Origin: a virus
Virus record (IMG/VR): IMGVR_UViG_3300029113_000006
Location: 1-57,109 of that record
Length of the DNA stretch: 57,109 nt
Strand: one strand, 5' to 3'
This document shows, piece by piece, positions 5,786 to 53,673 of the stretch. The notes under the pieces are model-generated. The model saw only the letters and a program-made list of their open reading frames with translations. It was not told the DNA's origin and did no database searches. Numbering within the stretch: position 1 is the first letter of the stretch; every line of letters begins with the position of its first letter. The position numbers were made by a program, and so were the translations under genes.

Positions 5786-6468
5786 TTGCCCTCCCGGAGA
5801 CGGGTCAGGCCCTTCTTGCAAATGATCTTCGGGTAGTTGCGTGTGGTCACATTGAGGTCAACGTGACCGGAAATGCCCGGCACAGCGCCCTTGCTGGTGT
5901 GCTGGTGGGCGTTGTACTTAAAACTAACCTTGGGGGTCTTGCCGGTGTAGTCCGCCAGCCATACGTCCCACCGCCCTGCAAGCCTTGCCATGTCCAGATG
6001 GACGTTTGCGTAGCTCGTGTAGGTGTAGAGTTGGGCGAAGAAGCCCATCTTCTCAATCTGTTCCAGATGGTAGGCTGCCAGATTGGATAAGTTCCCATAG
6101 GGCATCCCGGCAAGAATCGGCGATTCCAGATCCACTGCCACCGGCATGGTCATCTCTTTCCCAACCAGGGTCTTCCGCAGCACGGCAAGCTCCCGGTTTG
6201 CCATCTCCTCACTGGTGGCGTTGGTGTAGTAGTATGCCCCCACATCCAGCCCAGCTGCCTTTGCGTTGGAATAGTTGCCCTCGAAGGTGGGGTCGATGTA
6301 GGGTACACCGTTGCGGCTCCCTACGGCCCGCAGCATCACGCCTTTGTAGCCTGCCGCTTTTACCTGCGCCCAGCCCTCCATTTTGATTTTTCCCTGCCAC
6401 CGGCTTACGTCGATGTAGCGGTAGGGCGGTGCTCCCGTCCACTCGGTCACCTCAGTCACAGATGCCAT
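5782..6468 (-). CDS. Endolysin, GH25 muramidase
   Basis: YIDVSRWQG..., VAVDLE, GAYYY motifs; AGGAGG precedes ATG 6468; the ORF stays open upstream to 6600. Confidence 0.85.
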   Translation of the reverse strand: MASVTEVTEWTGAPPYRYIDVSRWQGKIKMEGWAQVKAAGYKGVMLRAVGSRNGVPYIDPTFEGNYSNAKAAGLDVGAYYYTNATSEEMANRELAVLRKTLVGKEMTMPVAVDLESPILAGMPYGNLSNLAAYHLEQIEKMGFFAQLYTYTSYANVHLDMARLAGRWDVWLADYTGKTPKVSFKYNAHQHTSKGAVPGISGHVDLNVTTRNYPKIICKKGLTRLREGK

Positions 6469-6589
6469 TGTGTCCTCCTGTTCTGCCTGTTCTTCTGCCA
6501 AAGCGGCAAAGAACCGGCTCAAAAAGTTGAAAAGTGCGGTCAAAAATGTGTTGTTTATTGCGATCACCCCCAATGTCAAAGAGTAGGCA

Positions 6590-7660
6590 TTAAGTGCCAT
6601 GCGCGGCCTGGGTCTCGGTCAGCAGTTCGGCAAGGGTGGGATAGTGGTAGCCGGTGAATACAACCGATACAGTATTCATCGTATTGGTAAGGGTACATTC
6701 AAGACGTTTTTTGTCGGCCGAAAATAATACTGTGACCGTGAGACTTCCCGCGCTAGAAATGTGAGCTTCATATGTCATACCAGGGGTAAGATTAAAATCA
6801 GCTTCGTTTACGCGGAGGTTAACGTAATCTACACCGTCCTGAACGTTAATTGTCTCAGTTTTTCTCCTCCCAATCGTTGTTTTTCCGCTCCACACCAGCC
6901 GCGCCTCCGACTTTACCGCCACGGCGGCAGCGATCTTGTCATTGAGCGTTTTGGCGCTGAGGGTGCCGTCCGGGGCGATGTCCAGGTAGTCGCCCACCTT
7001 CACGCCGCCCAGCAAGGTAGCAGTGGCGGGGCGAAGGGGCATGTACTGCTCAAGCAGCTGCCTGATCTGGTTTTGCGTCAGGTAGTCTGACAGATCCACC
7101 TCTTTGCGGGTATCGACCCACGCGCCGGTGTCACCGTCCCACGTCCAAATGGTGTCCGTAGTACCAACGACTGCCCACCAGCCATTTTCGCCTATAGGAA
7201 CAGCGGCTTTCAGAGCTTCCGGCGTGGCGTACCACCCCTGTGCACCGATGGTGATGGTGCGGACCTGCTCAAAGTATTCTTTTGTGCCCTGCAAATAAAT
7301 AGCAGACTGAGATTCCGAACGCTTTGAATTGGTTTCGCTTGTCTTGGCAGCAGCAGCAGACAAAGCTGCATTTTCAGAGTCTGCTTTTACAATTGCAGAA
7401 ACGTCTTTTGCGGCATTTTTTGCAGCCTGTTCTGCTTTTGCACGTTCTTCCGCAGCGGAATTTGCCGCCGAAACGGCTTCCTCTTTTGCGTTGATGGCAC
7501 CTGCAACTGTACTCAGCTCATTTAAAGTGGATGCGTTGATTGGTGTGCCGTCCTTTATGGGCTCGTCGTTTCGGACGAGCGTTACAACTTCAGACGACCC
7601 ATCCTCATGGACTAACGTCCACCTGCCAGGATATTTTGATATGCGGTCTTCAAAAACCAT
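6590..7660 (-). CDS. Tail fibre / receptor-binding protein candidate
   Basis: 356 aa, Ala-rich coiled coil then beta-rich C-terminus; position after the tail-tip genes. Confidence 0.55.
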   Translation of the reverse strand: MVFEDRISKYPGRWTLVHEDGSSEVVTLVRNDEPIKDGTPINASTLNELSTVAGAINAKEEAVSAANSAAEERAKAEQAAKNAAKDVSAIVKADSENAALSAAAAKTSETNSKRSESQSAIYLQGTKEYFEQVRTITIGAQGWYATPEALKAAVPIGENGWWAVVGTTDTIWTWDGDTGAWVDTRKEVDLSDYLTQNQIRQLLEQYMPLRPATATLLGGVKVGDYLDIAPDGTLSAKTLNDKIAAAVAVKSEARLVWSGKTTIGRRKTETINVQDGVDYVNLRVNEADFNLTPGMTYEAHISSAGSLTVTVLFSADKKRLECTLTNTMNTVSVVFTGYHYPTLAELLTETQAAHGT

Positions 7661-20172: not shown

Positions 20173-21681
20173 TTATTCACCCTCTGTTTCTTTATTGGTG
20201 CTGTCAGCCTGTCCGTCTAATGTTTTGTTGACGTTAACAACTTGTTCAGGCTTCGGCTTCTGTGGTTTCGGAGCTTTGCCGTCCTCACCCAGCTTGCCAG
20301 CGGCAATCAGGAAGGGCTTGCTCATTTCATAAGCAGCCTGCGGGTCAGGGAACAGACCGGGCGTAGTGAACGCCAACTGAGGGTCAATGCTCTGACTGAG
20401 CATCTGTGCAAAAATCTGAACCTTGCTTTGCTGATTGTCGTACTGACGGCGGGGCAGCTTGATGTTGATGTCACTTGCCATCAGCTTAGAACCAGCCGTA
20501 TCACGCAGGATTTTCAGCATCACAGACAGGCTTTGGCGTTCCGAGAACTTGAACATATTCTCGTACTGCTGCGCCCTTGCTTCAGTGTGATTCCAGCCGT
20601 TGCGGACGATAACTGCGCCCACGTTGTCAGACGTTGCGTTCTCACTGCCAGTTGCACTAGGCATGGCAGTCAGGCTACGGTACACGTTTAACATGGAATC
20701 AAGCAAGGTCTGGCTCTGCTGCTGGTCAAGCTCGTTTGCAATCTGTGAGACAGAAGCAGGCAGACCAGCGGTAGACTTCAGACACATTGCGCCCAGTTCC
20801 TTGACCTTGTTGAGCGCATCCTCGTCCACAAGGCAGTTCGTAAACACCATGATGGACTGGATGAACTGCGCCACACCGTCCAGACGATTGCTTTCCAGGT
20901 CGTTGATGGAATCCAGAACAGGGATAGCCGGTTCAAACAGACCCATACGCTCCGGGTTGAGCTTGTATTCGACCATCGGTAGCATTCCAAGGGAGTGGTT
21001 TTCCGATTTCGTAACCTTGCCATTGTCGATTTCAAAGTACTGGTTCGGCGTATACACGCAAATCAGGTCGTTCAGGTCATTCTGATAATTGCGTGGGATG
21101 TGCAGCACGTTGGCGATGGGCTTGTGCCCAATACCGGAGTTGTAAATCACATACGCCATATCCGGGTCGGGAACATCCACCAGCAGGGGCGTTTCGTCCG
21201 GGTAGTTGCCGTTGTACCCCTTGTCAGGAAGAACAATGCGGTATCCCTGTCCGCACTCTAACATCCACTGCCAGAGCCGCCGATCAAGCGCGTCCTTGCC
21301 CTCATACTGCAAAGCATTTGACAGGCGGGCGATTTCCTCACCGTCACCTATTGCCGTTTCAGACCGCACATAAGAGCAGGGAGTGCCACTCATGTAACCT
21401 GTGTAGAAACCCACGCATTCATTGGCATGGTTCTCTACAATGCGATTGGTGATTTCAGCGTGGTACTCCTTTGTGCGGAGGAGGACAGGCTGGCTACCCA
21501 AGTAGTAGTTGTGCAGAAAGCGAATCTCGTTCTTGTTCAGCAGATGAATAGGCTCTGCCTTGCCCATGACCACTTTCAGCACATTTGCTTGATTGATTTC
21601 TGTTTCCGGCGTTTCAATCGGTCTACGTCCGGTCAACGGCTCATTCAAAAAACCGTCAACAATCATCTGATACTCAGCCAT
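20173..21681 (-). CDS. Portal protein
   Basis: 502 aa from ATG 21681 (AAGGAGG); lies between the terminase region and scaffold. Confidence 0.8.
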   Translation of the reverse strand: MAEYQMIVDGFLNEPLTGRRPIETPETEINQANVLKVVMGKAEPIHLLNKNEIRFLHNYYLGSQPVLLRTKEYHAEITNRIVENHANECVGFYTGYMSGTPCSYVRSETAIGDGEEIARLSNALQYEGKDALDRRLWQWMLECGQGYRIVLPDKGYNGNYPDETPLLVDVPDPDMAYVIYNSGIGHKPIANVLHIPRNYQNDLNDLICVYTPNQYFEIDNGKVTKSENHSLGMLPMVEYKLNPERMGLFEPAIPVLDSINDLESNRLDGVAQFIQSIMVFTNCLVDEDALNKVKELGAMCLKSTAGLPASVSQIANELDQQQSQTLLDSMLNVYRSLTAMPSATGSENATSDNVGAVIVRNGWNHTEARAQQYENMFKFSERQSLSVMLKILRDTAGSKLMASDINIKLPRRQYDNQQSKVQIFAQMLSQSIDPQLAFTTPGLFPDPQAAYEMSKPFLIAAGKLGEDGKAPKPQKPKPEQVVNVNKTLDGQADSTNKETEGE

Positions 21682-21767
21682 GTGTTCCTCCTTTCCGGCA
21701 AAATAAAAAGCGCAGCAAGACAAACCTGTTAAGGTCTATCTCACTGCGCCAAAAGTGCGCCTTAAAC

Positions 21768-22133
21768 TTATTTTTGATATATGAAAATCGATTTAGGCTT
21801 CCACTGAGAAATTCTTTCAGATATATCTTTTACGTGAATATATCCCAAAGAAATCATTTTATTTTTGCTGTTTTCACCAGCGGTTAAAATTGATGCAAGA
21901 GCCAAATCCCCGTGTCCACAACAAGAATTTATTGTATTAACTCCCTTTGATTTTAAACTCAATAATTCATCTTCAAGACACAAATCGCAGCAAAACCCAT
22001 ATCGAGTTTTTACGCAACATTTATATTCTCCAATTTTTGAACTACCACAAAACTTTTTTGCGTTTTCTAAATCAAGAGAACTAATCTTTCCGCTTTCAAA
22101 AAGAGCAGTTATATTTTCTTCCAACACACACAT
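21768..22133 (-). CDS. Cys/His-rich 121-aa protein of unknown function in an AT-rich island
   Basis: KCCVKTRYGFCCDLC...NSCCGHG; local GC about 30% against about 50% for the genome. Confidence 0.5.
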   Translation of the reverse strand: MCVLEENITALFESGKISSLDLENAKKFCGSSKIGEYKCCVKTRYGFCCDLCLEDELLSLKSKGVNTINSCCGHGDLALASILTAGENSKNKMISLGYIHVKDISERISQWKPKSIFIYQK

Positions 22134-22147
22134 AACGTTGTCCTTTT

Positions 22148-22330
22148 TTACCTTTCAGGAGAATGAATTATTTTAACCCACCCTTCTTTTGTATCCCCTT
22201 CAATAACCCCCTTGCATCTGTCGCACTTGAAATGGTATCGTCCGTCTACTTCACCAAGATAGCGATTGCAGCGGACGTTCTTATAGATGGGATTCTGCCT
22301 GATACAAGGGCAACAGATTCTAACTAGCAT
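22148..22330 (-). CDS. Zinc-ribbon-like 60-aa protein in an AT-rich island
   Basis: CPC...CDRC pairs; AAAGGAG RBS. Confidence 0.5.
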   Translation of the reverse strand: MLVRICCPCIRQNPIYKNVRCNRYLGEVDGRYHFKCDRCKGVIEGDTKEGWVKIIHSPER

Positions 22331-22499
22331 GAGCGCTCCTTTCGCTGAATTTCTGGAAACAGGCTGTTGAGCACAGACCTGTCAGAAGCTACTGGGAAAC
22401 TATTCGCACTTCCAGCCGTGCTATTCTTCGCCCGAAGAAAACCATTGCAGCCTTTACATTCAGTTGTCGGACAGACGTAAAACGGGTAAGCTGCAATTT

Positions 22500-22577
22500 T
22501 GGTGCTGCATAATGGATTTGAACCAATGTATGCCCGGTTATGAGCCGGATGCTCTAGCCTGACTGAGCTAATGCAAC
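22500..22577 (-). tRNA. tRNA with CAT anticodon (Met/fMet or Ile2), CCA encoded
   Basis: Hand fold: GTTGCAT/ATGCAGC acceptor, TAGCTCAGTCAGGCTAGAGCA D-arm, TCCGG-CTCATAA-CCGGG, GGTTCAAATCC T-loop, ACCA. Confidence 0.8.
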
Positions 22578-22704
22578 ATAGAAGCCCGGCTTGATTGGTT
22601 AACCGCTGCTCTTTGCAATGTCATGCCTAAACATTACATTGAGAGCCGGGAATAGCGGTGGAGGTTTTGGAGAATAAGTCCATGCAAAGCTAGGTAGTTG
22701 GTTG

Positions 22705-22785
22705 TGCTGCGTAACGGAATCGAACCGTTGCTTGCCAGACGTGGGGGAGACAGACTGGCATTCCCCAAACAATTGGAAACGCAAC
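22705..22785 (-). tRNA. tRNA-like element with non-canonical anticodon arm (pseudo or atypical tRNA)
   Basis: Acceptor GTTGCGT/ACGCAGC and T-arm AACGG-TTCGATT-CCGTT are good, but GCCAG/CTGGC encloses a 16-nt loop and the D-arm is poor. Confidence 0.4.
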
Positions 22786-22930
22786 ATATAAAGCCCGGTG
22801 AAGGAAAAAGAGTGAGAAAGCCTCCACCGGTGAAAGGAGGAATATGCTTGTTGACACGCACGCGAGTAAAATGACAAAACCCCGCGTGCAAGCTATTCCT
22901 TTAAGGGAAGCTGCAAAACTTCCTGCGTAC

Positions 22931-22960
22931 ATTATAAGCCTTGTCAAGTGGTGAAATCAA
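22931..22960 (-). promoter_or_regulatory. Sigma-70-type promoter TTGATT-18-TATAAT driving the tRNA/RNA island
   Basis: Reverse complement of 22931..22960. Confidence 0.45.
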
Positions 22961-22999
22961 ATAAATAGACCCAGCGAACACAATATATTGTGTTTTTAA

Positions 23000-24667
23000 T
23001 CAAAAAGGCCTCTTGACAGGCTCAATTTTACTGATTCCGTTGTACAATTCATCGGCAAGCTGTGCCAGACTATCCGGTGCGTCATCGTGCGGAACTTTAC
23101 CAAGCTGCGTGAACATCGTTACCTGTTCCATGAATGCCTTGTACTCTTTCGACTGGTGCTTCTCGTCAAGGAAGTAGAACCGCTTGATGTCCGGCGCATA
23201 CTGGATGATTCTGGATAACTTGCTTTGACCACTTGGCGCACGTTGGCTGCGGACAGAGCAGTGATAGCCTTGCTGCCGGAGCTGGCTGTCTACCACGTCA
23301 CAATATTCATCGCCGCCGTTGTTGGCTTCGCCACGCACCACGTTGATTTTATGCTGGATGATTTTGCCCACGACTTCCGGTCTGGTCACGGTCTTGTCGC
23401 CGTTATTGAACACAAGGTCGGGGATGAACACAGCATCGCCGTACACATAAGCAATAGGACAGGCGGTGAAGTCCCCGCCACCCCATGCAATATCCATGAC
23501 CATGAGCTTGCGATCGGGTTCACCATCAGGCAGCACGCCGTTATAATACCATAGTTCATCGGCAGGGAACAGCAAGCCTTCACGCACATAAGGCTTGCCC
23601 ATGTACTTTGCCCACCATGTTGCATCGTCAATGCTGGCTTTCATGTCTGCATAGTAGGCATCGTCAAATCCCACGCCGTAGTCATAATTGAAATTGCTGT
23701 GTCCGTTCTCATCCACAGCGGGAATCACCCGGAATCTGTACTTTGGATTGTCTGCGTACTGGTTCTGGATGCGCCCCAAAGGGTCAAGCACGTTCCAGCG
23801 TGTGCCGACCATCAGCTCCAATGCGCCTTGCTTTTTACGGTCTTTTAGCTGGTTTAGGTAGGCATCGTACTTGTTGTTCAGACGCTCAACGTTCAGACTT
23901 TCTTCCAAATCCTCAATCAAGTCATCGCTGTACAGAACGCCGCCCTCGCCGATTTCAACAGCACCTGTCAGCGTACCGCCAATGGAGCGGCAAGTCAAAG
24001 TGGGAAAACGCTTTTTACGGTTCAGGTCAACGCTTTCGTCCTTTGCGCTCTTATCTACAAGCTGAACGTCAGGGAAGATTTTCCCCCAATTATAAGTCAC
24101 GGGGTCAGTGATGATAGACAGCACTTCGCCGTAGAAGCCGTTGGTCAGCTTGTCAGAATGTCCGCTCATAACCGATGCAACGTCAGGGCGGTTGCCCATC
24201 AGCCATGTGATAAAAAATATACAGAGCGTACTTTTTCCAGTTCTCGGGGGCTGGCTGACCCCAAGAAATTCTACACGATGGAAAAACAAGTCCTCTAGGT
24301 CACGAACCAACGTCAAAAGCACTTTTCTTCTCGGCTGATAGAACTTCTTTTCCGGCGCACGGTTCCATTCAAGGTAGATGCAATAGCTGTCAAATACATC
24401 CTTTGCTTCAAACAGGTACGTTCGGCTGATAATATCATAGACCTTTGCCACGTCCTCGCCTGTTTTCATCTTGCCCATCATGGCTGCACAGACAGAGCGC
24501 AGCTCCCCAGAGTATTTGTAGGTATCGAACCGCTTGTCTTGCGGCAGAGCATCTCTAAGGTTCACGACCGCCTGAAACCAGTCCTCATAGACCTGTGCTT
24601 CGGTCGGATTCTGCTTTGCATACGCTTTGATGCTGTCAATGATGGCGATACACTGTTTTGACTGCAT
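23000..24667 (-). CDS. terL: Terminase large subunit
   Basis: Walker A-like PPRTGKST, ATPase plus nuclease size; start ATG 24667 is preferred over the TTG at 24757. Confidence 0.9.
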   Translation of the reverse strand: MQSKQCIAIIDSIKAYAKQNPTEAQVYEDWFQAVVNLRDALPQDKRFDTYKYSGELRSVCAAMMGKMKTGEDVAKVYDIISRTYLFEAKDVFDSYCIYLEWNRAPEKKFYQPRRKVLLTLVRDLEDLFFHRVEFLGVSQPPRTGKSTLCIFFITWLMGNRPDVASVMSGHSDKLTNGFYGEVLSIITDPVTYNWGKIFPDVQLVDKSAKDESVDLNRKKRFPTLTCRSIGGTLTGAVEIGEGGVLYSDDLIEDLEESLNVERLNNKYDAYLNQLKDRKKQGALELMVGTRWNVLDPLGRIQNQYADNPKYRFRVIPAVDENGHSNFNYDYGVGFDDAYYADMKASIDDATWWAKYMGKPYVREGLLFPADELWYYNGVLPDGEPDRKLMVMDIAWGGGDFTACPIAYVYGDAVFIPDLVFNNGDKTVTRPEVVGKIIQHKINVVRGEANNGGDEYCDVVDSQLRQQGYHCSVRSQRAPSGQSKLSRIIQYAPDIKRFYFLDEKHQSKEYKAFMEQVTMFTQLGKVPHDDAPDSLAQLADELYNGISKIEPVKRPF

Positions 24668-24772
24668 AAAAAAATAGGCACCCCCTACCTGAAAATGTAA
24701 AGAGTGCCTACAACTGCACAAAAATTGAATATTCGGTTTTATTTTAGTTGCGGACAATGTCAGCTGAAAATA

Positions 24773-25418: not shown

Positions 25419-26075
25419 TTAGCGGTGGCTTGTGGTTGGGCTGCCGCTATTTTTATTTGCGTATCTTTCGACACGCTCATACCAAGTGGATTTCCCTATG
25501 CCAAGCTGCTTGCAGCACTCTTTTACAGTGATTTCGCCTTTTTTCTGTTGTTTTAATAGGCTTTCAAACTGCTGCTCGTCAACTTGCTTTTCCTGTCTTC
25601 CGAAGCTACGGCCTGTTCTGGCCGACACTCTCTTGCCATCAACAATAGGCATGGCAGCTATGCCCTCCGCCTGACGTTGCTTGGTTTTTTTGCGTTCCTG
25701 TTCAGCTACTGCGCCCAAAACCTCAATAAGGATGTTGTTTACCATTTCCAGCACCCACGTCTGGTCTTGGAAGTCAATAAGCGTGGTCGGAATGTCGAGA
25801 ATGCGAACAATCACGCCTTTTTCTTTGAACCATTGAAGTTCTCGCTTCATTTCGTCTTTGTCACGCCCGAATCGGTCAAATTCCTTGACGATGACTTCAT
25901 CCCCAGCCTTGACAGTCTCTTTCAATCGTTTATACTGCGGACGGTCAAAGCTGCTGCCTGTCATTTTATCACAAAATACGTTCTCGTCCGGGATGTCAAA
26001 CCGATCTCGTGCGATTTTAAGCTGTCTTGCAAGATTTTGCTCTTTGCTCGACACTCTCGCTAAGAAATAACGCAT
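25419..26075 (-). CDS. Small serine recombinase (resolvase/invertase family)
   Basis: MRYFLARVSSKEQNLARQ... catalytic Ser motif; C-terminal HTH (GKSTWYERV); about 218 aa. Confidence 0.85.
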   Translation of the reverse strand: MRYFLARVSSKEQNLARQLKIARDRFDIPDENVFCDKMTGSSFDRPQYKRLKETVKAGDEVIVKEFDRFGRDKDEMKRELQWFKEKGVIVRILDIPTTLIDFQDQTWVLEMVNNILIEVLGAVAEQERKKTKQRQAEGIAAMPIVDGKRVSARTGRSFGRQEKQVDEQQFESLLKQQKKGEITVKECCKQLGIGKSTWYERVERYANKNSGSPTTSHR

Positions 26076-26087
26076 TGCAATCACCCG

Positions 26088-27419: not shown

Positions 27420-27538
27420 TACGTCCGCTGCTGTCTGCAAACTTTAGCGAACGTATCATGTAAACCCTGAGAGAAGCATTCTCTCGCCGTTATTATAGCA
27501 GAAAATTGCTTCTCTCACAAGTGAAAAGGAGCTTTTTA

Positions 27539-28333
27539 ATGCAACTTTCTTTGTCTGAGAACATCAAAATCTTCAACAACGCCGAGTTTGGCGAAATCCG
27601 CGTCATGCTCATTGACGATGACCCTTGGTTTGTTGGCAAGGACATTGCCGCAGCACTTGGGTACGTCAACACGAAAGACGCTCTTGCAAAGCACGTTGAC
27701 GAGCAAGATAAGCGTCAGGGAGATGGGGTAGCGTTTTGCGACCCCATGGGTAGAGAACAGCATCCGACCATCATCAACGAATCCGGCCTATACAGTCTGA
27801 TTTTCAGTAGCAAGCTGGAAAGCGCACAGCGGTTCAAGCACTGGGTCACTCACGAGGTCTTGCCGTCCATTCGCAAGCATGGGATGTACATGACCGACAA
27901 CCTGTTGGAGACGGCTATTGCCAACCCGGACTTTGTGATCGGGCTGATTCAAAACATGAAGGCCGAGAAGGAAAAGAGTGCAGCATTGCAGATGCAGAAC
28001 AAGCAGCTCTACGAGAAGAACGAAGAGATGCAGCCTAAGGCGGACTACTTCGATGACCTTGTGGCATGGAACTTGGCTGTTTGTTTCCGTGGAACGGCAA
28101 AGGAACTGCGTATTCCTGAACGCAAGTTCATCCAATCGCTTATTGAAGATGGTTACATTTACCGTGACAAAAACAGAAATCTCCTGCCGAAAGCTGGCAA
28201 AGGTGACGAACTGTTTGTCGTTAAGGAATTTCTCAATCGGAAGAATAAGCATGGCGGTTTGCAGACCAGAGTAACGCCGAAAGGCCGTGAGACGTTCCGT
28301 CTGCTCTATGCAAGCATCCGCAAAAACGGATAA
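27539..28333 (+). CDS. Antirepressor (Bro-N domain plus KilAC-like C-terminus)
   Basis: FNNAEFGEIRVMLIDDDPWFVGKDIAAALGY... Bro-N signature; start ATG 27539 after AAAGGAG. Confidence 0.8.
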   Translation: MQLSLSENIKIFNNAEFGEIRVMLIDDDPWFVGKDIAAALGYVNTKDALAKHVDEQDKRQGDGVAFCDPMGREQHPTIINESGLYSLIFSSKLESAQRFKHWVTHEVLPSIRKHGMYMTDNLLETAIANPDFVIGLIQNMKAEKEKSAALQMQNKQLYEKNEEMQPKADYFDDLVAWNLAVCFRGTAKELRIPERKFIQSLIEDGYIYRDKNRNLLPKAGKGDELFVVKEFLNRKNKHGGLQTRVTPKGRETFRLLYASIRKNG

Positions 28334-30660: not shown

Positions 30661-30886
30661 GGGGGTGCAAGCTGTGATACTATCCGCACTTCTGTTTTTC
30701 TTCTGGTTTTTCTCTGCACTTTTCAAGGCCAGTAAATGACCAGATCGGACACTTTAGCGGGGCTGCACCGTAAAGCAACCCCGCCCCAGCCCAAAAGGGC
30801 AAAAATATTTTTGCAAGTCCTGTTTTTGGGGCCTGCGATATGATATACTGTAAAAAAGGGCAAAAGCTCGGAAAGAAGATGGCAAA

Positions 30887-33877: not shown

Positions 33878-35101
33878 TTACATCCACACGCATTCTTTGA
33901 ACTGCTGTGTTTCCATCTGGAACGTAATGTCCAGTGACCCCACGTTGCCCTCTTTGTTCTTCTCAAGCGCAAAGTGATAATGCTGCTCTGGTCGTTTTTT
34001 CGTGGTCACGTTCTGTGCCAGCAGGATAATTGCATCTGCGTCCTGCTCGATCTGTCCGCTCTCTCGCAGGTCTGCGGCAGTCGGTGGGATACCCGCTCTT
34101 GCGGTTTCTCGATTGAGCTGCGCAAGAGCTACCACAAGCGTTCCTGTGGACTGTGCGAACTCATGCAGTGCCATGCTGATTTCTGTGACGGCACTGTATC
34201 GGTCTTTCGCTCCGGCTTGATGAATAAGCTGCAAATAGTCGATGAACACCACTTTTGCTTGCATCCTGATGGACTGCGTTCTAATCCATCCAACGCTCTT
34301 ACCAGCAGCGGAGCGAACGAACAGCGGATATTTCTTGATGGCTGCTAGTCGGTCAAGTTCGTTAATGCTGACGGTCTTGTTTTTGACCGTATGCAACGGT
34401 ACGCCTAGCTGGTTTGCTATGATACGAGCATAGAGTGTATCCGGGTCTGTCTCTAGGCTGAAATACGCCACCTTGCGTCCGTTCTTGGCTATTTCACAGG
34501 CAAGTTGCAGAGACAGAGCGGTCTTACCAGCAGACGGTCTTCCGCCGATCACAACGAAGTTTCCCGGCACAAGATGCAAGTTGTTATCCAGCACTCTGAG
34601 CCCTGTGCTGATATACTCCGGCTTATCATCCAGCTTGCGGATGTAATTGTCTATGCCATCGCACATCGGAATGAAATCGCTTCTCTCGTTGTGCAGGTTG
34701 ATGGCTTCGCCTAGCTGCTCATAGATGCCTGTCAGGTCTGCATACCTTGTCGAGCCATCAACGATTTTGAACGCAATCTCTCTGGCTCTGGATAACGCTG
34801 CCTGTTCCTTGACGATTCCAGCCCATCCAAGCATCATGTCATGGGTGACATTGCGGATGAACTCTGCGCCAAAGGCATCTAGGCATTCACCCATTGCTTT
34901 CTTGCAGTTATCGTACCGCCCCATGACTTCTACCGGGTTCCATTTGTCGTTGTGTTCCCAATAACCACGAATGGCAGCGAATGTATCACGCAGTTCTGGG
35001 CAAAAATCGTCGATTTTAAGGTCTTGTAGCACATCGGCGTATTCCGAGAACGTGAGGACTGCTCCCAGCAGGATGTATTGGGTTTGATTTTCAATATTCA
35101 C
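33878..35101 (-). CDS. dnaB: Replicative DNA helicase DnaB
   Basis: GGRPSAGKTALSLQLA Walker A, IDYLQLI, 407 aa. Confidence 0.9.
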   Translation of the reverse strand: MNIENQTQYILLGAVLTFSEYADVLQDLKIDDFCPELRDTFAAIRGYWEHNDKWNPVEVMGRYDNCKKAMGECLDAFGAEFIRNVTHDMMLGWAGIVKEQAALSRAREIAFKIVDGSTRYADLTGIYEQLGEAINLHNERSDFIPMCDGIDNYIRKLDDKPEYISTGLRVLDNNLHLVPGNFVVIGGRPSAGKTALSLQLACEIAKNGRKVAYFSLETDPDTLYARIIANQLGVPLHTVKNKTVSINELDRLAAIKKYPLFVRSAAGKSVGWIRTQSIRMQAKVVFIDYLQLIHQAGAKDRYSAVTEISMALHEFAQSTGTLVVALAQLNRETARAGIPPTAADLRESGQIEQDADAIILLAQNVTTKKRPEQHYHFALEKNKEGNVGSLDITFQMETQQFKECVWM

Positions 35102-42644: not shown

Positions 42645-42859
42645 TCTCTCTCACCTCTAAATTCGCTTCCGAGATACCGCTTCTTACCACGCTCCCGGTG
42701 CTTGTCCTCATAGTCACGGTGGTACACGCTCTGGCTGTGGTTCAGCTCATACACGAATGCTTTGCGCTCCTCGAGGTCTTTCTTCTCTGCCTTGTACTTC
42801 TCGCAAGTGTCGTGGCAAGCTGTGCAGCGTAATTTGCAGTTGAGACAACAGGTAATCAT
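42641..42859 (-). CDS. Cys-rich 72-aa protein
   Basis: Start at internal ATG 42859, overlapping the methyltransferase stop; MITCCLNCKLRCTACHDTCEKY... Confidence 0.45.
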   Translation of the reverse strand: MITCCLNCKLRCTACHDTCEKYKAEKKDLEERKAFVYELNHSQSVYHRDYEDKHRERGKKRYLGSEFRGERE

Positions 42860-44259
42860 TCTTCGCCGAATCTCCTTTTTGTAACGGCAATGGGAAACTC
42901 TTCGATTTCGGAAGCCCATCGTGCCGTACCGTTTCCATAGGTCTTTTGCCAGACAAGTGGGAAGCCGCCTATACCGTCGAACAGGCTTCCTAGCGTGGCA
43001 TTTGTACTTAAATAGGGCTTCATCTTCTGTGCAATCCAGAACCATTGCGGTAGAGCAATGCTGTTTCCGAGTGCCTTGTAACGTGGGCTGTCAGCATACT
43101 TATGCTTCTTGCCTTTGCTGTCCGTCCATTCTCCAATGTCCGTCCATCCGTCCGGGTAGCCTTGTAGCCGTTCGCATTCAACAGGTGTCAGACGGCGAAC
43201 AATCCAACGGATAGCTTTTTCTGCAATCAGACACTCGCTGCCATTGCCGATGTTCCCGGCTTTTGCTTTCAAGGTTGAGCATTTGTCGCTTTCTTTGTAG
43301 TGACTGAAAGACTGTTCATTAAAGGTTTCGCGTTCGATTGCAATGGCCGTGTAGTCTGTGATTCTGTTTTCGTGGTCGCCCGTAATTGTTGGCACTATTT
43401 TGCCATCGCCGTTTCCGCGAGCATCATAAACAACAGGCTGAAACAATGTCTGGTCTTGGAGTGTTGAAAGCGTTGCGCTTTTTTCGGTTTGTACCAGAGC
43501 ACCTTTACCACCACCGGCGCATCCACTACGGATTTTCAGGGTGTAGGCTGCAGGTTCTGTGCATCGAGTCGAAGTCTCTCGATGGTCTGACTCCAATACT
43601 CGTCCAATTCCTTCTCTTCCAGACCTTCTTGTTCCTTCACTTTCTGCACCACCTGTGACAGAGTTCCTGGATTCCACCATTCGATCATATCCAGCAACGC
43701 TTGCTTCAGGAGTTCGGGCAAAGGTTTTCCACGCCGGGATGCTCTCACAAGAATTCCCTGACATGCTCGTGCGCTCAAATAGAATTTCTGAGGCACGTTG
43801 TCCTCCAAAATCTGCGACAAGAGCGATTCTTTTACGGCGTTGGGGGACTCCCCAATATTGAGCGTCAAGCTGTCTCCATGCCAAAGACCATCCGTTTCCG
43901 GCGATTGCTCCGGATTTGCTCCATCTGCCCCCCCTACCCGAAGGTCGAGGAATTGAAGCATCTGGTTGTTCCACGCTGGCAAGTTCTTCCAGCACGGCTC
44001 TGAAATCTTCTCCTCCGTTGGAACTGAATGCTCCGGGCACGTTTTCCCAAACAGCGAAAGTTGGATACATTCCATTGGTGGCTGTCCTCATTTCCTTAAT
44101 GATTCTTGCGGCATCCAAAAACAGCACGGAACGGTTGTCGTCAAATCCAAGCCTTTTCCCCGCCATAGACAAGCCCTGGCAAGGACTGCCGAACGTAATG
44201 CAATCCACCGGCTCTATCTTGTCGCCGTGAATCTTTGTGATGTCGCCCAAGTGTTTCAT
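42856..44259 (-). CDS. DNA (cytosine-5)-methyltransferase, circularly permuted (motifs IV-X followed by I-II)
   Basis: GSPCQ (aa 24-28), ENV (72-74), QRR (140-142), RLTPVECERLQGYPDGW (356-372), GNS (398-400), then LFDGIGGF (426-433) and ASEIE (449-453) at the C-terminus. Confidence 0.85.
   Translation of the reverse strand: MKHLGDITKIHGDKIEPVDCITFGSPCQGLSMAGKRLGFDDNRSVLFLDAARIIKEMRTATNGMYPTFAVWENVPGAFSSNGGEDFRAVLEELASVEQPDASIPRPSGRGGRWSKSGAIAGNGWSLAWRQLDAQYWGVPQRRKRIALVADFGGQRASEILFERTSMSGNSCESIPAWKTFARTPEASVAGYDRMVESRNSVTGGAESEGTRRSGREGIGRVLESDHRETSTRCTEPAAYTLKIRSGCAGGGKGALVQTEKSATLSTLQDQTLFQPVVYDARGNGDGKIVPTITGDHENRITDYTAIAIERETFNEQSFSHYKESDKCSTLKAKAGNIGNGSECLIAEKAIRWIVRRLTPVECERLQGYPDGWTDIGEWTDSKGKKHKYADSPRYKALGNSIALPQWFWIAQKMKPYLSTNATLGSLFDGIGGFPLVWQKTYGNGTARWASEIEEFPIAVTKRRFGEE
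43536..44075 (-). other. 179-codon ORF in the +1 frame, wholly inside the methyltransferase gene (possible overlapping gene)
   Basis: Longest same-strand alternate-frame ORF in the window; the C-terminal half is protein-like (LSQILEDNVPQKFYLSARACQGILVRASRRGKPLPELLKQAL...). Confidence 0.3.
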
Positions 44260-47611: not shown

Positions 47612-48361
47612 TCAGTCCTCCGCTTTCTGGATTTTCTTTGCTTTCAAGAAGAGGTTTACGAAGTAGACTTGGCCGCGACCGGAAATCTTAGGAGTGCGGT
47701 TAATGGAAATGTGGTCGCTGTGTTGAATCGTGGTCTCTTTGATTTCAAACAGCCCCATCTCCATACTACGCTGCGTAGGCAAGTTGTAGTCGCTTCGTTT
47801 CGGGTCTTTAATGAGGTAGCCGTTCTTTCGCATCCAGTCGAACAAACGGTTCTGTCCGATGTTAATGCCATTTTGCGAAAGCAGCTTTGCAAGCTCACCA
47901 ACGAGAATGGATTTTTTGCTTGCTGAAACTGCGTCAGCGAAAAGCGCTTTCGGCTTCATGGTTTCAATCTGCTTGTCCTTCTCTTCCAGCTCTTCGTGCG
48001 CTGCGATCAGCGCAGTTGCAAGGAGATGCGAGCGGGTGAGCTGCGGCTGTTCTGTCAGTTTCTTTTCCATTTCGTTGAACGCTGCAATGTACTTGAGCTT
48101 CCACTCAAGAGCAGCCTTGCCGGTAAAGCCCATAGCCAGCAGGGTGAAACCGTCACGGTTCATCAGGTAAGCCCTCTGTTCCCTGCCGTAGCTGTCCGGC
48201 GCTGTGGTTTCAAAGAACATCTCCCCAAAATTGGGGACATCTTTTTTGATTGCATCGATGTCACGCATCACATGATCGTGACGCTTTTCAAAGTTCTCGG
48301 CAATCTGGCGGCTGGATGCTACCGGTTCGCCGCTTTGCATAGATAAGACAATGTCGCTCAT
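47612..48361 (-). CDS. Rha-family regulator fused to a KilAC-type antirepressor domain
   Basis: SSRQIAENFEKRHDHVMRDID... (Rha) and a C-terminal KilAC-like region. Confidence 0.7.
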   Translation of the reverse strand: MSDIVLSMQSGEPVASSRQIAENFEKRHDHVMRDIDAIKKDVPNFGEMFFETTAPDSYGREQRAYLMNRDGFTLLAMGFTGKAALEWKLKYIAAFNEMEKKLTEQPQLTRSHLLATALIAAHEELEEKDKQIETMKPKALFADAVSASKKSILVGELAKLLSQNGINIGQNRLFDWMRKNGYLIKDPKRSDYNLPTQRSMEMGLFEIKETTIQHSDHISINRTPKISGRGQVYFVNLFLKAKKIQKAED

Positions 48362-51765: not shown

Positions 51766-52860
51766 ATGCCAGAATTGACAGGAAACAACCTTGTCGAAAA
51801 GAGCAAGGCATTGGTTTGGGCGAAGTTTACGGACTACACAGCAGGCGAGCTTCGGCTGCTTGAGGTCTATCTGAGCCGTATCAATCCGAGAGACCCCGAA
51901 AGCTCCAACGTGTCGTTTACGCTGGCTGAATATTGCAAGCTGCTGGATTTGAAGCTCAATTCAAAGAACTTGAAGTCTCAGGTTAAGCACTTTTTGGGCA
52001 ACGTGGTTTCAGTGCCATTGAATGCAGATGGAACAGAATATGTGATGTATCCGCTGTTCACAAAGGCAGAGGTCAAATTCAATCGAGAATCCTTGTCCTA
52101 TGACGTTTCAATCAACTGTAATCCTGACTTGCGGCCTGTGTTTTTCGACATTGCAAGAAGCGGTTACGTCAAATACCGTCTGCGCTATACGATTGGGATG
52201 AAGCAGCAAGCATCTATTCTGATGTACAGCATGATTCGAGATTGGATGAATCGCTCTCTAACATCGAACAAGATTGGTTTGAAGCAGTTGCGTGACCACT
52301 TGGGGGCAAACGATGCAAGTTATGACGACTTCCGAGCTTTACGCCGCAGAGTTCTTGAACCAGCAGTGGAAGAGATCAGCAATGTTTCAGACATTGTCGT
52401 TGACTTTGAAAAGATTTGCACAGGGCGAAAGGTAGTAGCAGTTGAGTTCCGATTCGGGTACAAATCCAAGCAGCCCGTCATAGATGCCGATTCTAGCGAG
52501 GTTGATTGTGAGACGGCTAATTCCAAGCCGGAAATCAAAAAAGCTGCCAGAAAGCCCCGCACAAGCGGATACGAAGGGTACGACTGGTCTGTGTGCGATG
52601 CGCTGTCGGTTCAAGAGTGTATCGAGGTCGCAAAGGTAGTTGAGGTAAAGATGATGGAAGAGCATCCATCTATTAAGCTACCAAAGCGGAGAGATGCAGT
52701 CTACGACATTGTAAAGGCCGCGTGTGCAGATATTCTTTCAATCAACCGTGACCCTTGGCCTGACCATCCGAAGCGGTATCTGATTGGTAGCTTGAAGAAA
52801 GACGGCGCGATTGAAGAGTATCTTCCGGCATTTTATGAGATTGACGCACTGCAAAAGTAA
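51766..52860 (+). CDS. Plasmid-type replication initiator (Rep_3/RepB-like winged-helix family)
   Basis: NNLVEKSKALVWAKF..AGELRLLEVYLSRI... N-terminal pattern; iterons immediately upstream. Confidence 0.7.
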   Translation: MPELTGNNLVEKSKALVWAKFTDYTAGELRLLEVYLSRINPRDPESSNVSFTLAEYCKLLDLKLNSKNLKSQVKHFLGNVVSVPLNADGTEYVMYPLFTKAEVKFNRESLSYDVSINCNPDLRPVFFDIARSGYVKYRLRYTIGMKQQASILMYSMIRDWMNRSLTSNKIGLKQLRDHLGANDASYDDFRALRRRVLEPAVEEISNVSDIVVDFEKICTGRKVVAVEFRFGYKSKQPVIDADSSEVDCETANSKPEIKKAARKPRTSGYEGYDWSVCDALSVQECIEVAKVVEVKMMEEHPSIKLPKRRDAVYDIVKAACADILSINRDPWPDHPKRYLIGSLKKDGAIEEYLPAFYEIDALQK

Positions 52861-52893: not shown

Positions 52894-53673
52894 ATGGCAA
52901 AAATTATAGCTGTCGCCAACCAGAAGGGCGGCACAGGAAAGACTACCACAAGCACCTGTCTGGCTGGTGCGTTGCAGTTGCTTGGCAAGAAAGTCCTGCT
53001 GGTGGACTGCGATGCCCAGTGCAACGCAACGGACACTTACGGCGCACAGACAGAGGATGTATGTACCCTGTTTGATGTGATGACCCGGCAGGGTACGGTA
53101 GAGGAAGGAATCCAGCACTGTGAAGCGGGTGACATTCTGCCGTCTGACAACGCATTGAAGGACATTGACGAGCAGCTTGTCCGGGACATGGGCAAGAACT
53201 TCCGGCTGCGAGAAGCTCTTGAAAGCGTGTCTGAGCAGTACGATTACATTGTGCTGGACACTCCCCCGCAGCTTGGTCTTGCGCTTGTGAACGCACTGAT
53301 CGCCGCCAACAGCATCATTGTGCCCATCACAGCAGACCGATACGCACTGGCTGGTTTGAGCCAGCTTTCGCAGACCATCGGCGATGTTCGCAGATATTTC
53401 AATCCGACTTTGAAGATTGAAGGTCTGCTTCTGAACCAGTACAAGAGCCGTGAGAACTTGTCCAAAGAGGTTGTGGAGCAGCTTCCTGTGATTGCACAGA
53501 GCATGGGAACAACCCTGCTGGATGTGAAGATTAGACCGTCTATGGGCGTTCGTAAGGCACAGGCAGAGCGCCACAGCCTGTTTAGTGGCGACACGGCAAA
53601 GAGTACCAGCGCAGAGGATTTCAAGGCTTTGGCGAAGATGATTGTGGAGGGTGACAACAATGAGAATGATTGA
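52894..53673 (+). CDS. parA: ParA/Soj-family partition ATPase
   Basis: Deviant Walker A: IAVANQKGGTGKTT. Confidence 0.9.
   Translation: MAKIIAVANQKGGTGKTTTSTCLAGALQLLGKKVLLVDCDAQCNATDTYGAQTEDVCTLFDVMTRQGTVEEGIQHCEAGDILPSDNALKDIDEQLVRDMGKNFRLREALESVSEQYDYIVLDTPPQLGLALVNALIAANSIIVPITADRYALAGLSQLSQTIGDVRRYFNPTLKIEGLLLNQYKSRENLSKEVVEQLPVIAQSMGTTLLDVKIRPSMGVRKAQAERHSLFSGDTAKSTSAEDFKALAKMIVEGDNNEND

Follow-up and report, generated by a model that had tools for sequence, protein, structure and literature searches.

The tRNA cluster of bacteriophage T4 encodes small stable RNAs (species 1 and 2, RNA C/D) that do not decode, are co-transcribed with the tRNAs and released by the tRNA-processing machinery, and whose function is unknown. 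In the 3′ETS-leuZ-type spacers of Escherichia coli and in the TMERs of murine gammaherpesvirus 68, tRNAs or tRNA-like units serve as RNase P/Z signals that release regulatory RNAs. Long non-coding RNA regions located beside tRNAs, or containing them, are represented in phages and prophages of Bacillota by ROOL and GOLLD (PMC5737381, PMC12286853), and phage tRNAs counter tRNA-cleaving defences, some through changes in the anticodon loop (PMC10264068, PMC11464382, PMC11555353, PMC12445682). Here we analysed positions 1–57,109 of the IMG/VR virus record IMGVR_UViG_3300029113_000006 (57,109 nt, the whole stretch being referred to as the window) and describe a structured island that lies in a 669-nt gap (22331–22999, minus strand, as are all island features below unless stated otherwise) between terL and the portal gene, and contains a tRNA-like element, TLE-1, in one slot and a tRNA in a second. 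This is a real, conserved and hitherto undescribed RNA locus that matches no described family, and we class it among the tRNA-derived and tRNA-linked phage RNAs. It shares with ROOL and GOLLD the character of a long non-coding phage or prophage RNA region of Bacillota beside or containing tRNAs, but gives no covariance-model match and consists of exchangeable modules with local helices rather than of a single conserved fold. Unlike the T4 RNAs, which come from the extensive tRNA cluster of a virulent phage infecting Proteobacteria, the island is placed between terL and the portal gene and bears motifs resembling the anti-Shine–Dalgarno (anti-SD) sequence; from the 3′ETS-leuZ-type spacers and the TMERs it differs in organism and sequence, and its processing is a prediction.

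A TerL search of IMG/VR yielded at least 588 confirmed relatives. In the best 80 of these, which come almost entirely from human-gut data, TerL is 96–99% identical and the intergenic region is 75–100% identical to the window. A sequence pattern for the tRNA-like element retrieved at least 118 further IMG/VR stretches, nearly all of them contigs of ~28–60 kb with few shorter fragments, which we take to represent the same phage group as the window. The distinct islands assembled from these two sets (n = 146) are 57–100% identical to the window. Four divergent islands (L203/L205, L207 and L208) were added through the 60-aa protein encoded after the island, as were L204 and L206, both truncated upstream. 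More than 150 distinct relatives keep the non-coding region corresponding to 22331–22999. In viromes of the human gut, this phage group is very common. Throughout, pairing frequencies are compared with controls in which the helix partners were slid against each other.

The 81-nt TLE-1 (22705–22785), already noticed as tRNA-like in the first-pass annotation, which was made from the sequence of the window alone, adopts a four-arm cloverleaf supported by covariation. Among its 75 distinct variants, which fall into five types (with three more types in distant relatives), 96.5% of the cells of a plain MAFFT alignment are paired, compared with 32–48% in the slid controls; eight pairs and 70 cells are changed on both sides, and none of 500 shuffles reached the covariation score. 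Compensatory forms are found in the T stem (AACGG/CCGUU, AGCGG/CCGCU, GGUGG/CCACC) and in the D stem (UCCC/GGGA, UCUC/GAGA, UUUC/GAAA, UCCA/UGGA), and minimum free energy alone yields the cloverleaf in four of the six variants tested (types B–E). With canonical tRNA (RF00005) the element has in common the four arms, a 7-bp acceptor stem (GUUGCGU/ACGCAGC), a discriminator A, a 5-bp T stem ending in G–C, a T loop of the form UUCRANY (UUCGAUU in the window), a D-loop GG in most types, and a 5′ flank and acceptor nearly identical to those of the adjacent tRNA(CAU). In contrast to tRNA, its D stem begins immediately after the acceptor stem, without the two-base linker, CCA is not encoded, and both a 7-nt anticodon loop and a consistent anticodon are missing. 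In the window, the position of the anticodon arm is occupied by an imperfect stem with one U–U mismatch (8 bp in the commonest variant) and a large loop of 12 nt, UGUCUCCCCCAC, which holds the C-run CUCCCCC at 22743–22749. Across the types this stem measures 5–8 bp and the loop 11–22 nt; the stem covaries (GCCAGCC/GGCUGGC, GCAAGCC/GGCUUGC, GCCAGAA/UUCUGGC, UCUGG/CCAGA), and the C-run is nearly universal, being present as CUCCCCC in ~125 of 149 islands, L207, the most distant, among them. Because the anticodon arm is thus replaced by a 5–8 bp stem and an 11–22 nt loop, TLE-1 is unable to decode.

Standard tools do not recognize the element: TLE-1 is not matched by the Rfam tRNA model, whether at E ≤ 10 in the window or, in the relatives L006, L014, L127 and L203, at E ≤ 1, and ARAGORN does not call it. 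An intron-bearing tRNA was considered and rejected, the anticodon proposed by relaxed ARAGORN differing by type (Asp, Gly, Thr, Gln, Ile, Leu); there is no hidden anticodon in TLE-1. Of the matches to the T-loop consensus GGTTCRANNCC elsewhere, the two inspected outside the island look unlike tRNA and a third falls within terL. In the divergent relatives L203/L205, L207 and L208, TLE-1 stands at the unchanged place. TLE-1 and the neighbouring tRNA are alike over the 5′ flank and acceptor (14 nt, 86%) and again over the T arm and 3′ acceptor (33 nt, 76%), segments that would fit a tandem duplication. The box that the first-pass annotation reported ahead of both units is indeed part of a true direct repeat, comprising the box and the 5′ strand of the acceptor, but it is not free-standing: it consists of the 3′ strand of an upstream helix and an A/U-rich linker, next to near-identical acceptors.

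The second slot follows the constant AAGCCGGG and a linker. In the window it holds a cassette of type 1, a canonical cloverleaf tRNA with anticodon CAU and encoded CCA (22500–22577), which had been recognized as a good tRNA(CAT) from sequence and is either Met or lysidine-type Ile; ARAGORN calls it as the single tRNA of the entire window (Met/CAT, 22500–22577), and Rfam matches 22503–22577 with 57 bits. The usage of AUA (105 of 862 Ile codons) was set aside as a clue to the identity of this tRNA, as the host would be needed to interpret it. In relatives, slot 2 may carry either of two other CAU tRNAs, whose bodies, compared by eye with the E. coli sequence, seem similar to bacterial initiator tRNA. 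In L033, L060 and L197 the type-2 cassette has the anticodon TAT (UAU) instead of CAT, which would fit an AUA-reading (Ile) role and not Met. In further derivatives the anticodon loop is disabled in different ways: in one it is reduced to 3 nt (Rfam tRNA, 51.4 bits, with the loop positions deleted), in another it is extended by 10 nt (47.3 bits), and in type 5 the anticodon arm is a 4–5 bp stem capped by GAAA, combined with a non-canonical T loop. The GAAA-capped form gives no match to the Rfam tRNA model, and its stem covaries, with ACGUC/GACGU in L014 and AUACC/GGUAU in L208.

Slot-1 and slot-2 types assort among the relatives, and eight of these (L006, L007, L014, L027, L046, L050, L207 and L208) are without a callable tRNA, the architecture being otherwise entire. 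The swapping of slot-2 cassettes and the existence of relatives without a callable tRNA indicate that the conserved property is the tRNA shape, not decoding; for slot 2, decoding is accessory, and it is not the function that the island conserves. In L098 (~6615–6764, minus strand), slot 2 contains a hybrid tRNA, in which the type-1 5′ half is fused with another T arm and acceptor, followed by at least one further tRNA-like sequence (GTTCCCGTAGCTCAATTGGTA...), implying that some relatives carry a longer array.

The segments between and around the two slots are structured as well. The first-pass annotation had described hairpins in the leader and nested stems in the spacer, and had proposed a comparison with homologous regions of related phages as a check; this comparison, run on the relatives, shows structure conserved with covariation, and almost all features listed in the annotation were recovered at the positions it gave. 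Leader helices are 94.4% paired, compared with 44–53% for the slid controls, and ten pairs are changed on both sides. Hairpin P1 (GGAAGUU...AGCUUCC, 22906–22923; helix 1, 95% paired) would lie ~1–2 nt from the predicted 5′ end; its sequence is nearly invariant and hence does not covary. P2 (GCACGCGGG...CUCGCGUGC, 22858–22889), which reads CCCA^AGCAAG/CUUGCUUGGG in another subtype, has five of nine pairs changed on both sides. P3 (CCGGUGGAGG / CCUUCACCGG, 22795–22830), a helix of 10–11 bp with a pyrimidine-rich loop, ends 9 nt short of TLE-1 and is present in all island types with differing sequences (five of ten pairs changed on both sides; 95–100% paired). Half of the spacer forms a Y-shaped domain (22585–22650) whose outer helix, CCCGGCU/AGCCGGG, encloses CUC/GAG, the hairpin UGUAAUGU.../ACAUUGCA (the stem first described as CAATGT/ACATTG) and a small GGUU/AACC hairpin. 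It is 99.4% paired, against 26–43% when slid, with four pairs changed on both sides; the outer helix becomes CCCAGCU/AGCUGGG in L207, and 7 nt separate the end of the domain from the tRNA. The other half of the spacer is unstructured and G-poor. Each tRNA-shaped unit is thus preceded by a covarying helix and a 7–9 nt A/U-rich linker.

Downstream of slot 2, trailer hairpin T1 (AUUGCAGC...GCUGCAAU, 22444–22497) begins 3 nt past the CCA of the tRNA and shows exchanges between AU and UA and between GC and AU; with other slot-2 cassettes, other hairpins take its place. T2 (22424–22439), UUCUUC and GAAGAA closing a GGGC loop, shows exchanges between UA and CG. The last ~90 nt (22331–22422) form a nearly invariant 5′ untranslated region (UTR) element with hairpins T3 (22391–22416) and T4 (22351–22387) and the ribosome-binding site (RBS) GAAAGGAG (22336–22343); the element is the same in all cassette combinations, and is present also in L203, L207 and L208; at pair 96/117 of T3, 28 sequences have UA and 7 have CG. 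In the consensus fold of the whole island, the leader CAU...CUCCUUUC pairs with GAAAGGAG...AUG of the trailer, and the sole other long-range contact is a 4-bp invariant helix. A 12-nt direct repeat on the minus strand, UUGCAGCUUCCC / UUGCAGCUUACC, has one copy close to the predicted start of the leader (22905–22916) and the other just after the 3′ end of the tRNA (22485–22496). A 13-nt inverted repeat, 92% complementary, links the 5′ strand of P3 (22817–22829) to the spacer sequence AAAACCUCCACCG (22656–22668) and would enclose TLE-1; as a conserved pairing it was rejected, no complementarity being seen by eye in the representatives of types B, C and D and in L208.

Three single-stranded pyrimidine motifs are a constant of the islands: the C-run in the TLE-1 loop, one in the leader and one in the spacer. 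The leader motif, CUCCUUUC, is single-stranded (22832–22839, in the context UUCCUCCUUUCA) and is kept in nearly all of the 149 islands and in every type. It is the exact complement of GAAAGGAG, the usual RBS of this phage, and the leader sequence CCUCCUUUC(U) equals what we take to be the 3′ tail of 16S rRNA, the anti-SD sequence. The GAAAGGAG 8-mer has nine other copies in the window, which we read from strand and position as mostly probable ribosome-binding sites, and the leader copy alone stands in sense orientation. The spacer motif, ACCUCC (22660–22665), occurs as (A/U)CCUCC or a close variant in most of the 149 islands, including the distant L203, L207 and L208. All three motifs are complementary to GGAGG-type ribosome-binding sites, and they persist in almost all of the 149 islands, their surroundings diverging.

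The island does not code for protein. In most of the 146 islands, each of the open reading frames (ORFs) within the gap, of 36–92 aa, is broken by stops or by frameshifting length differences, which establishes the island as non-coding and bears out the view that the entries of the ORF track are shadows; no stop ever falls within the first 15 codons of the next gene in the same set. A small plus-strand ORF behind a perfect AAAGGAGG was also discarded, because it is not conserved and its ATG is missing in other island types. Upstream, a predicted sigma-70-type promoter is present where the first-pass annotation had placed it (22931–22960), with the −35 hexamer TTGATT at 22955–22960, an 18-nt spacer and the −10 hexamer TATAAT at 22931–22936. 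A single match of this kind is about what chance would provide (mean of 1.3 in shuffles); the hexamers are nevertheless kept (TTGATT or TTGACT; TATAAT, TACAAT or TAAAAT) at the same spacing in types C, D, E and L208, in which the spacer and flanks have diverged. Transcription is predicted to start near 22924, and no terminator-like site was found on the minus strand between the promoter and the next gene. Five nucleotides past the terL stop, just upstream of the −35 hexamer, there is an 18-nt perfect palindrome, AACACAATATATTGTGTT (22977–22994), unique in the window; the corresponding place in L203 is taken by another palindrome, ACCGCTATATCTAGCGGT. A conserved operator was ruled out here, the palindrome being absent from other island types.

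Rfam, searched over the whole window at the gathering threshold, reports only the tRNA within the island. A permissive search of 22000–23300 (E ≤ 10) returned noise besides the tRNA, with no GOLLD, ROOL, tmRNA, T-box or Y-RNA, and neither GOLLD or ROOL nor any other non-tRNA family was found at E ≤ 1 in L006, L014, L127 and L203. For tmRNA, the dedicated ARAGORN search was negative too, and the long arm of TLE-1 is closed by a 12-nt loop; Y RNA/YrlA is absent from the families listed by the Rfam scans (4227 families, the Y RNA model presumably included).

The comparisons above establish that the region is structured, non-coding and modular and that decoding has been lost, and the interpretation that we tentatively put first, without considering it probable, is that the island is a self-promoted, tRNA-punctuated RNA operon from which RNase P and RNase Z would release stable small RNAs and a hairpin-capped mRNA. 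Such an operon would head the portal/capsid gene block and be copied as one transcript from its own promoter. Host RNase P would cut on the 5′ side of both tRNA-shaped units, and the 3′ sides would be made by RNase Z or, at the encoded CCA, by exonuclease trimming. Five pieces would result: a leader RNA of ~140 nt with terminal hairpins and the single-stranded CCUCCUUUC, a tRNA-like RNA of ~81 nt with the CUCCCCC loop, a spacer RNA of ~125 nt with ACCUCC, the tRNA, and the downstream mRNA, whose new 5′ end would be protected by a hairpin. Since the three motifs complement GGAGG-type ribosome-binding sites, the released RNAs may modulate translation, either in cis, the leader keeping the RBS and start codon of the following gene masked until processing parts them, or in trans, the released RNAs acting on other messages.

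Several observations weigh against a tRNA-punctuated operon, or at least against its being the whole explanation. Promoter activity, cleavage at the units and the stability of the products are predictions throughout. In L083–L200 the invariance of the TLE-1 acceptor and T loop is built in, because these relatives were retrieved by a pattern that fixed those bases; the acceptor is likewise invariant in all relatives not selected by the pattern (L001–L080, L203 and L208) and differs only in L207, by a compensatory change from C–G to U–A. The acceptor stem of the neighbouring true tRNA, unlike that of TLE-1, covaries. Because punctuation needs shape only, an invariant acceptor implies a sequence-specific partner, which the processing model does not name. 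The complement of the TLE-1 loop, GGGGGAG, is found at four sites in the phage, one of them the loop itself, against 4.4 expected; with no enrichment, pairing of the C-run with phage targets was set aside. The leader–trailer pairing is beyond covariation testing because the RBS is invariant, and in L203 the leader motif and the RBS have both changed in a non-compensatory manner, reducing the complementarity to 7 bp.

The invariant acceptor is what would be expected if TLE-1 had a specific protein partner, and it forms part of the case for a tRNA decoy or anti-defence RNA, an alternative that we regard as unlikely and that could coexist with processing: abundant anticodon-disabled units would bind a host protein recognizing the tRNA body and would themselves escape inactivation, the proposed targets being anticodon nucleases, toxins modifying the acceptor end and other tRNA-targeting immunity. 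The anticodon loop is disabled in various ways (3 nt, GAAA tetraloop, +10 nt, 11–22 nt) while the stems covary, the T loop is canonical in TLE-1 and in the slot-2 cassettes with a 3-nt or a +10-nt loop (GAAA type 5 excepted), and cassettes are swapped rapidly, as at arms-race loci; there is also the precedent of phage tRNAs acting against tRNA-cleaving defences (PMC10264068, PMC11464382, PMC11555353, PMC12445682). Those tRNAs resemble the island in having anticodon loops that depart from those of the host and in occupying a fast-turnover locus, but the published cases (PMC10264068, PMC11464382, PMC11555353) still decode, whereas here the anticodon loop is abolished and no defence system is linked. 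Neither a defence system nor a target was identified, no tRNA-related enzyme was found among the 20 phage proteins scanned, and a decoy leaves the loop C-run, the anti-SD-like motifs and the conserved leader, spacer and UTR unexplained. The nearly invariant final 90 nt, common to all cassette combinations, would instead be natural in a purely cis-acting 5′ leader of the portal/capsid operon, in which the leader anti-RBS would mask the first gene, excision of the units would relieve the masking and the pieces would be functionless. The pairing of leader and RBS in the consensus fold, the continuity from promoter to next gene with no terminator found, and the same small gene family always downstream agree with this proposal, to which we nonetheless give rather little credence: the pairing amounts to only 8 + 3 bp over ~500 nt, for which covariation is impossible, L203 retains only 7 bp of it, and the second and third pyrimidine motifs are left without a role.

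Covarying helices are numerous in the region, and together with the size, the phage context and the adjacent tRNAs, as reported for ROOL and GOLLD (PMC5737381, PMC12286853), they could suggest one large ornate RNA whose ~630 nt fold and act jointly with the tRNA embedded, a kinship raised in the first-pass annotation. We consider it very improbable, and the kinship itself did not hold up, given that the covariance-model search finds the tRNA only (no GOLLD, ROOL or other family at E ≤ 10) and that slot types assort in a modular island whose segments recombine independently. The helices are also local, save for the one leader–trailer pairing beyond covariation check, and the 13-nt inverted repeat lacks complementarity in types B, C, D and L208, as judged by eye. 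The flank, acceptor and T-arm sequence that TLE-1 shares with the tRNA would fit duplication within a decaying tRNA array, as would the several kinds of anticodon-loop damage in slot 2; the units would then be pseudogenes derived by duplication or recombination, and the hairpins ordinary intergenic structure. Simple decay is contradicted by the compensatory substitutions, which occur in every variable stem, and 96.5% pairing is not expected of pseudogenes; the T loop is invariant, the C-run is kept in eight divergent types and TLE-1 holds its place in L203/L205, L207 and L208, so that we rate decay as very improbable.

Whichever interpretation applies, the group bearing TLE-1 is widespread (at least 588 TerL relatives and at least 118 element-bearing stretches), implying that an unannotated RNA unit is present in many datasets. 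tRNA finders report "one tRNA" or "no tRNA" at this locus, and a conserved tRNA-derived RNA is overlooked. The retention of tRNA shape, with the anticodon lost in several ways, amounts to a natural experiment bearing on the reasons for which phages encode tRNAs; what is selected here is something other than codon supply. Should the motifs target ribosome-binding sites or the units be decoys, the locus would provide an RNA-only route to translation control or counter-defence. That non-decoding tRNA-shaped RNAs, with an invariant acceptor stem and deliberately disabled anticodon loops, and the flanking anti-SD look-alike RNAs make up a new class of phage RNA effectors, serving as uncleavable decoys against tRNA-targeting immunity or titrating ribosome-binding sites, is a speculative extension that we would not expect to prove right.

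The nearest cultured relative is Clostridium phage Maintenon (TerL identity 52%), in which terL and the portal gene are almost adjacent and the tRNAs are located elsewhere; among the relatives with 50–66% TerL identity, Maintenon is the only one in which the terL–portal gap itself was read. A TerL search of GTDB genomes gave two distant matches only (62–66% identity): one is a metagenome-assembled genome of Bacillota, whose locus has no called tRNA at all and another ORF layout after terL, and in the other the contig ends within terL. No tRNA was called at the locus in L082 and L201, which fall in the 50–66% range.

In the window, all genes of the terL–portal part are on the minus strand. From terL (23000–24757), the order is the 669-nt gap, a 60-aa ORF (22148–22330), a 121-aa ORF and the SPP1-type portal gene (20173–21723), with the major capsid protein gene further along; the island therefore lies within the terL–portal interval, as first described, but does not abut the portal gene. 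In L207 (1–2319), the gene call in the terL position, upstream of the island, gives a product of 889 aa that extends past the end of the locus, compared with 555–585 aa for TerL elsewhere; this product has no Pfam hit on record and may be a fusion or bear an insertion.

The 60-aa Cys-rich protein encoded directly after the island (its copy in L004 lies at 6410–6598) has six cysteines, with the CxxC pairs CCPC and CDRC. The family exists in two forms, 32% identical, around the invariant core C-x-RYLG-x-V-x-G; its gene is always 3′ of the island, and the family, restricted to this phage group, comprises only 21 clusters among 5.8 billion proteins. The protein has no Pfam match, and its best PHROG E-values, 0.17 and 0.22, are unconvincing. 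A relationship to Mu Com was considered and dropped, with no Pfam match, no convincing PHROG and no BLAST similarity.

Two further structured RNAs are matched at full length by Rfam elsewhere in the window, a DUF3800-VIII RNA at 1764–1827 on the minus strand (70.4 bits; gathering score 40.2) and a RAGATH-5 motif at 30745–30795 on the plus strand (60.3 bits; gathering score 50). On the plus strand, a Rep3-type plasmid replication initiator (51766–52860) adjoins a ParA-type ATPase (52894–53673), and from its gene content the genome looks more like a phage-plasmid than a prophage that integrates. Additional genes include a DnaB-like helicase (33878–35101, minus strand), a small serine recombinase (25419–26084, minus strand) upstream of the terminase genes, two antirepressor-type proteins (27506–28333 and 47612–48361) and a C5 DNA methylase (42856–44259).

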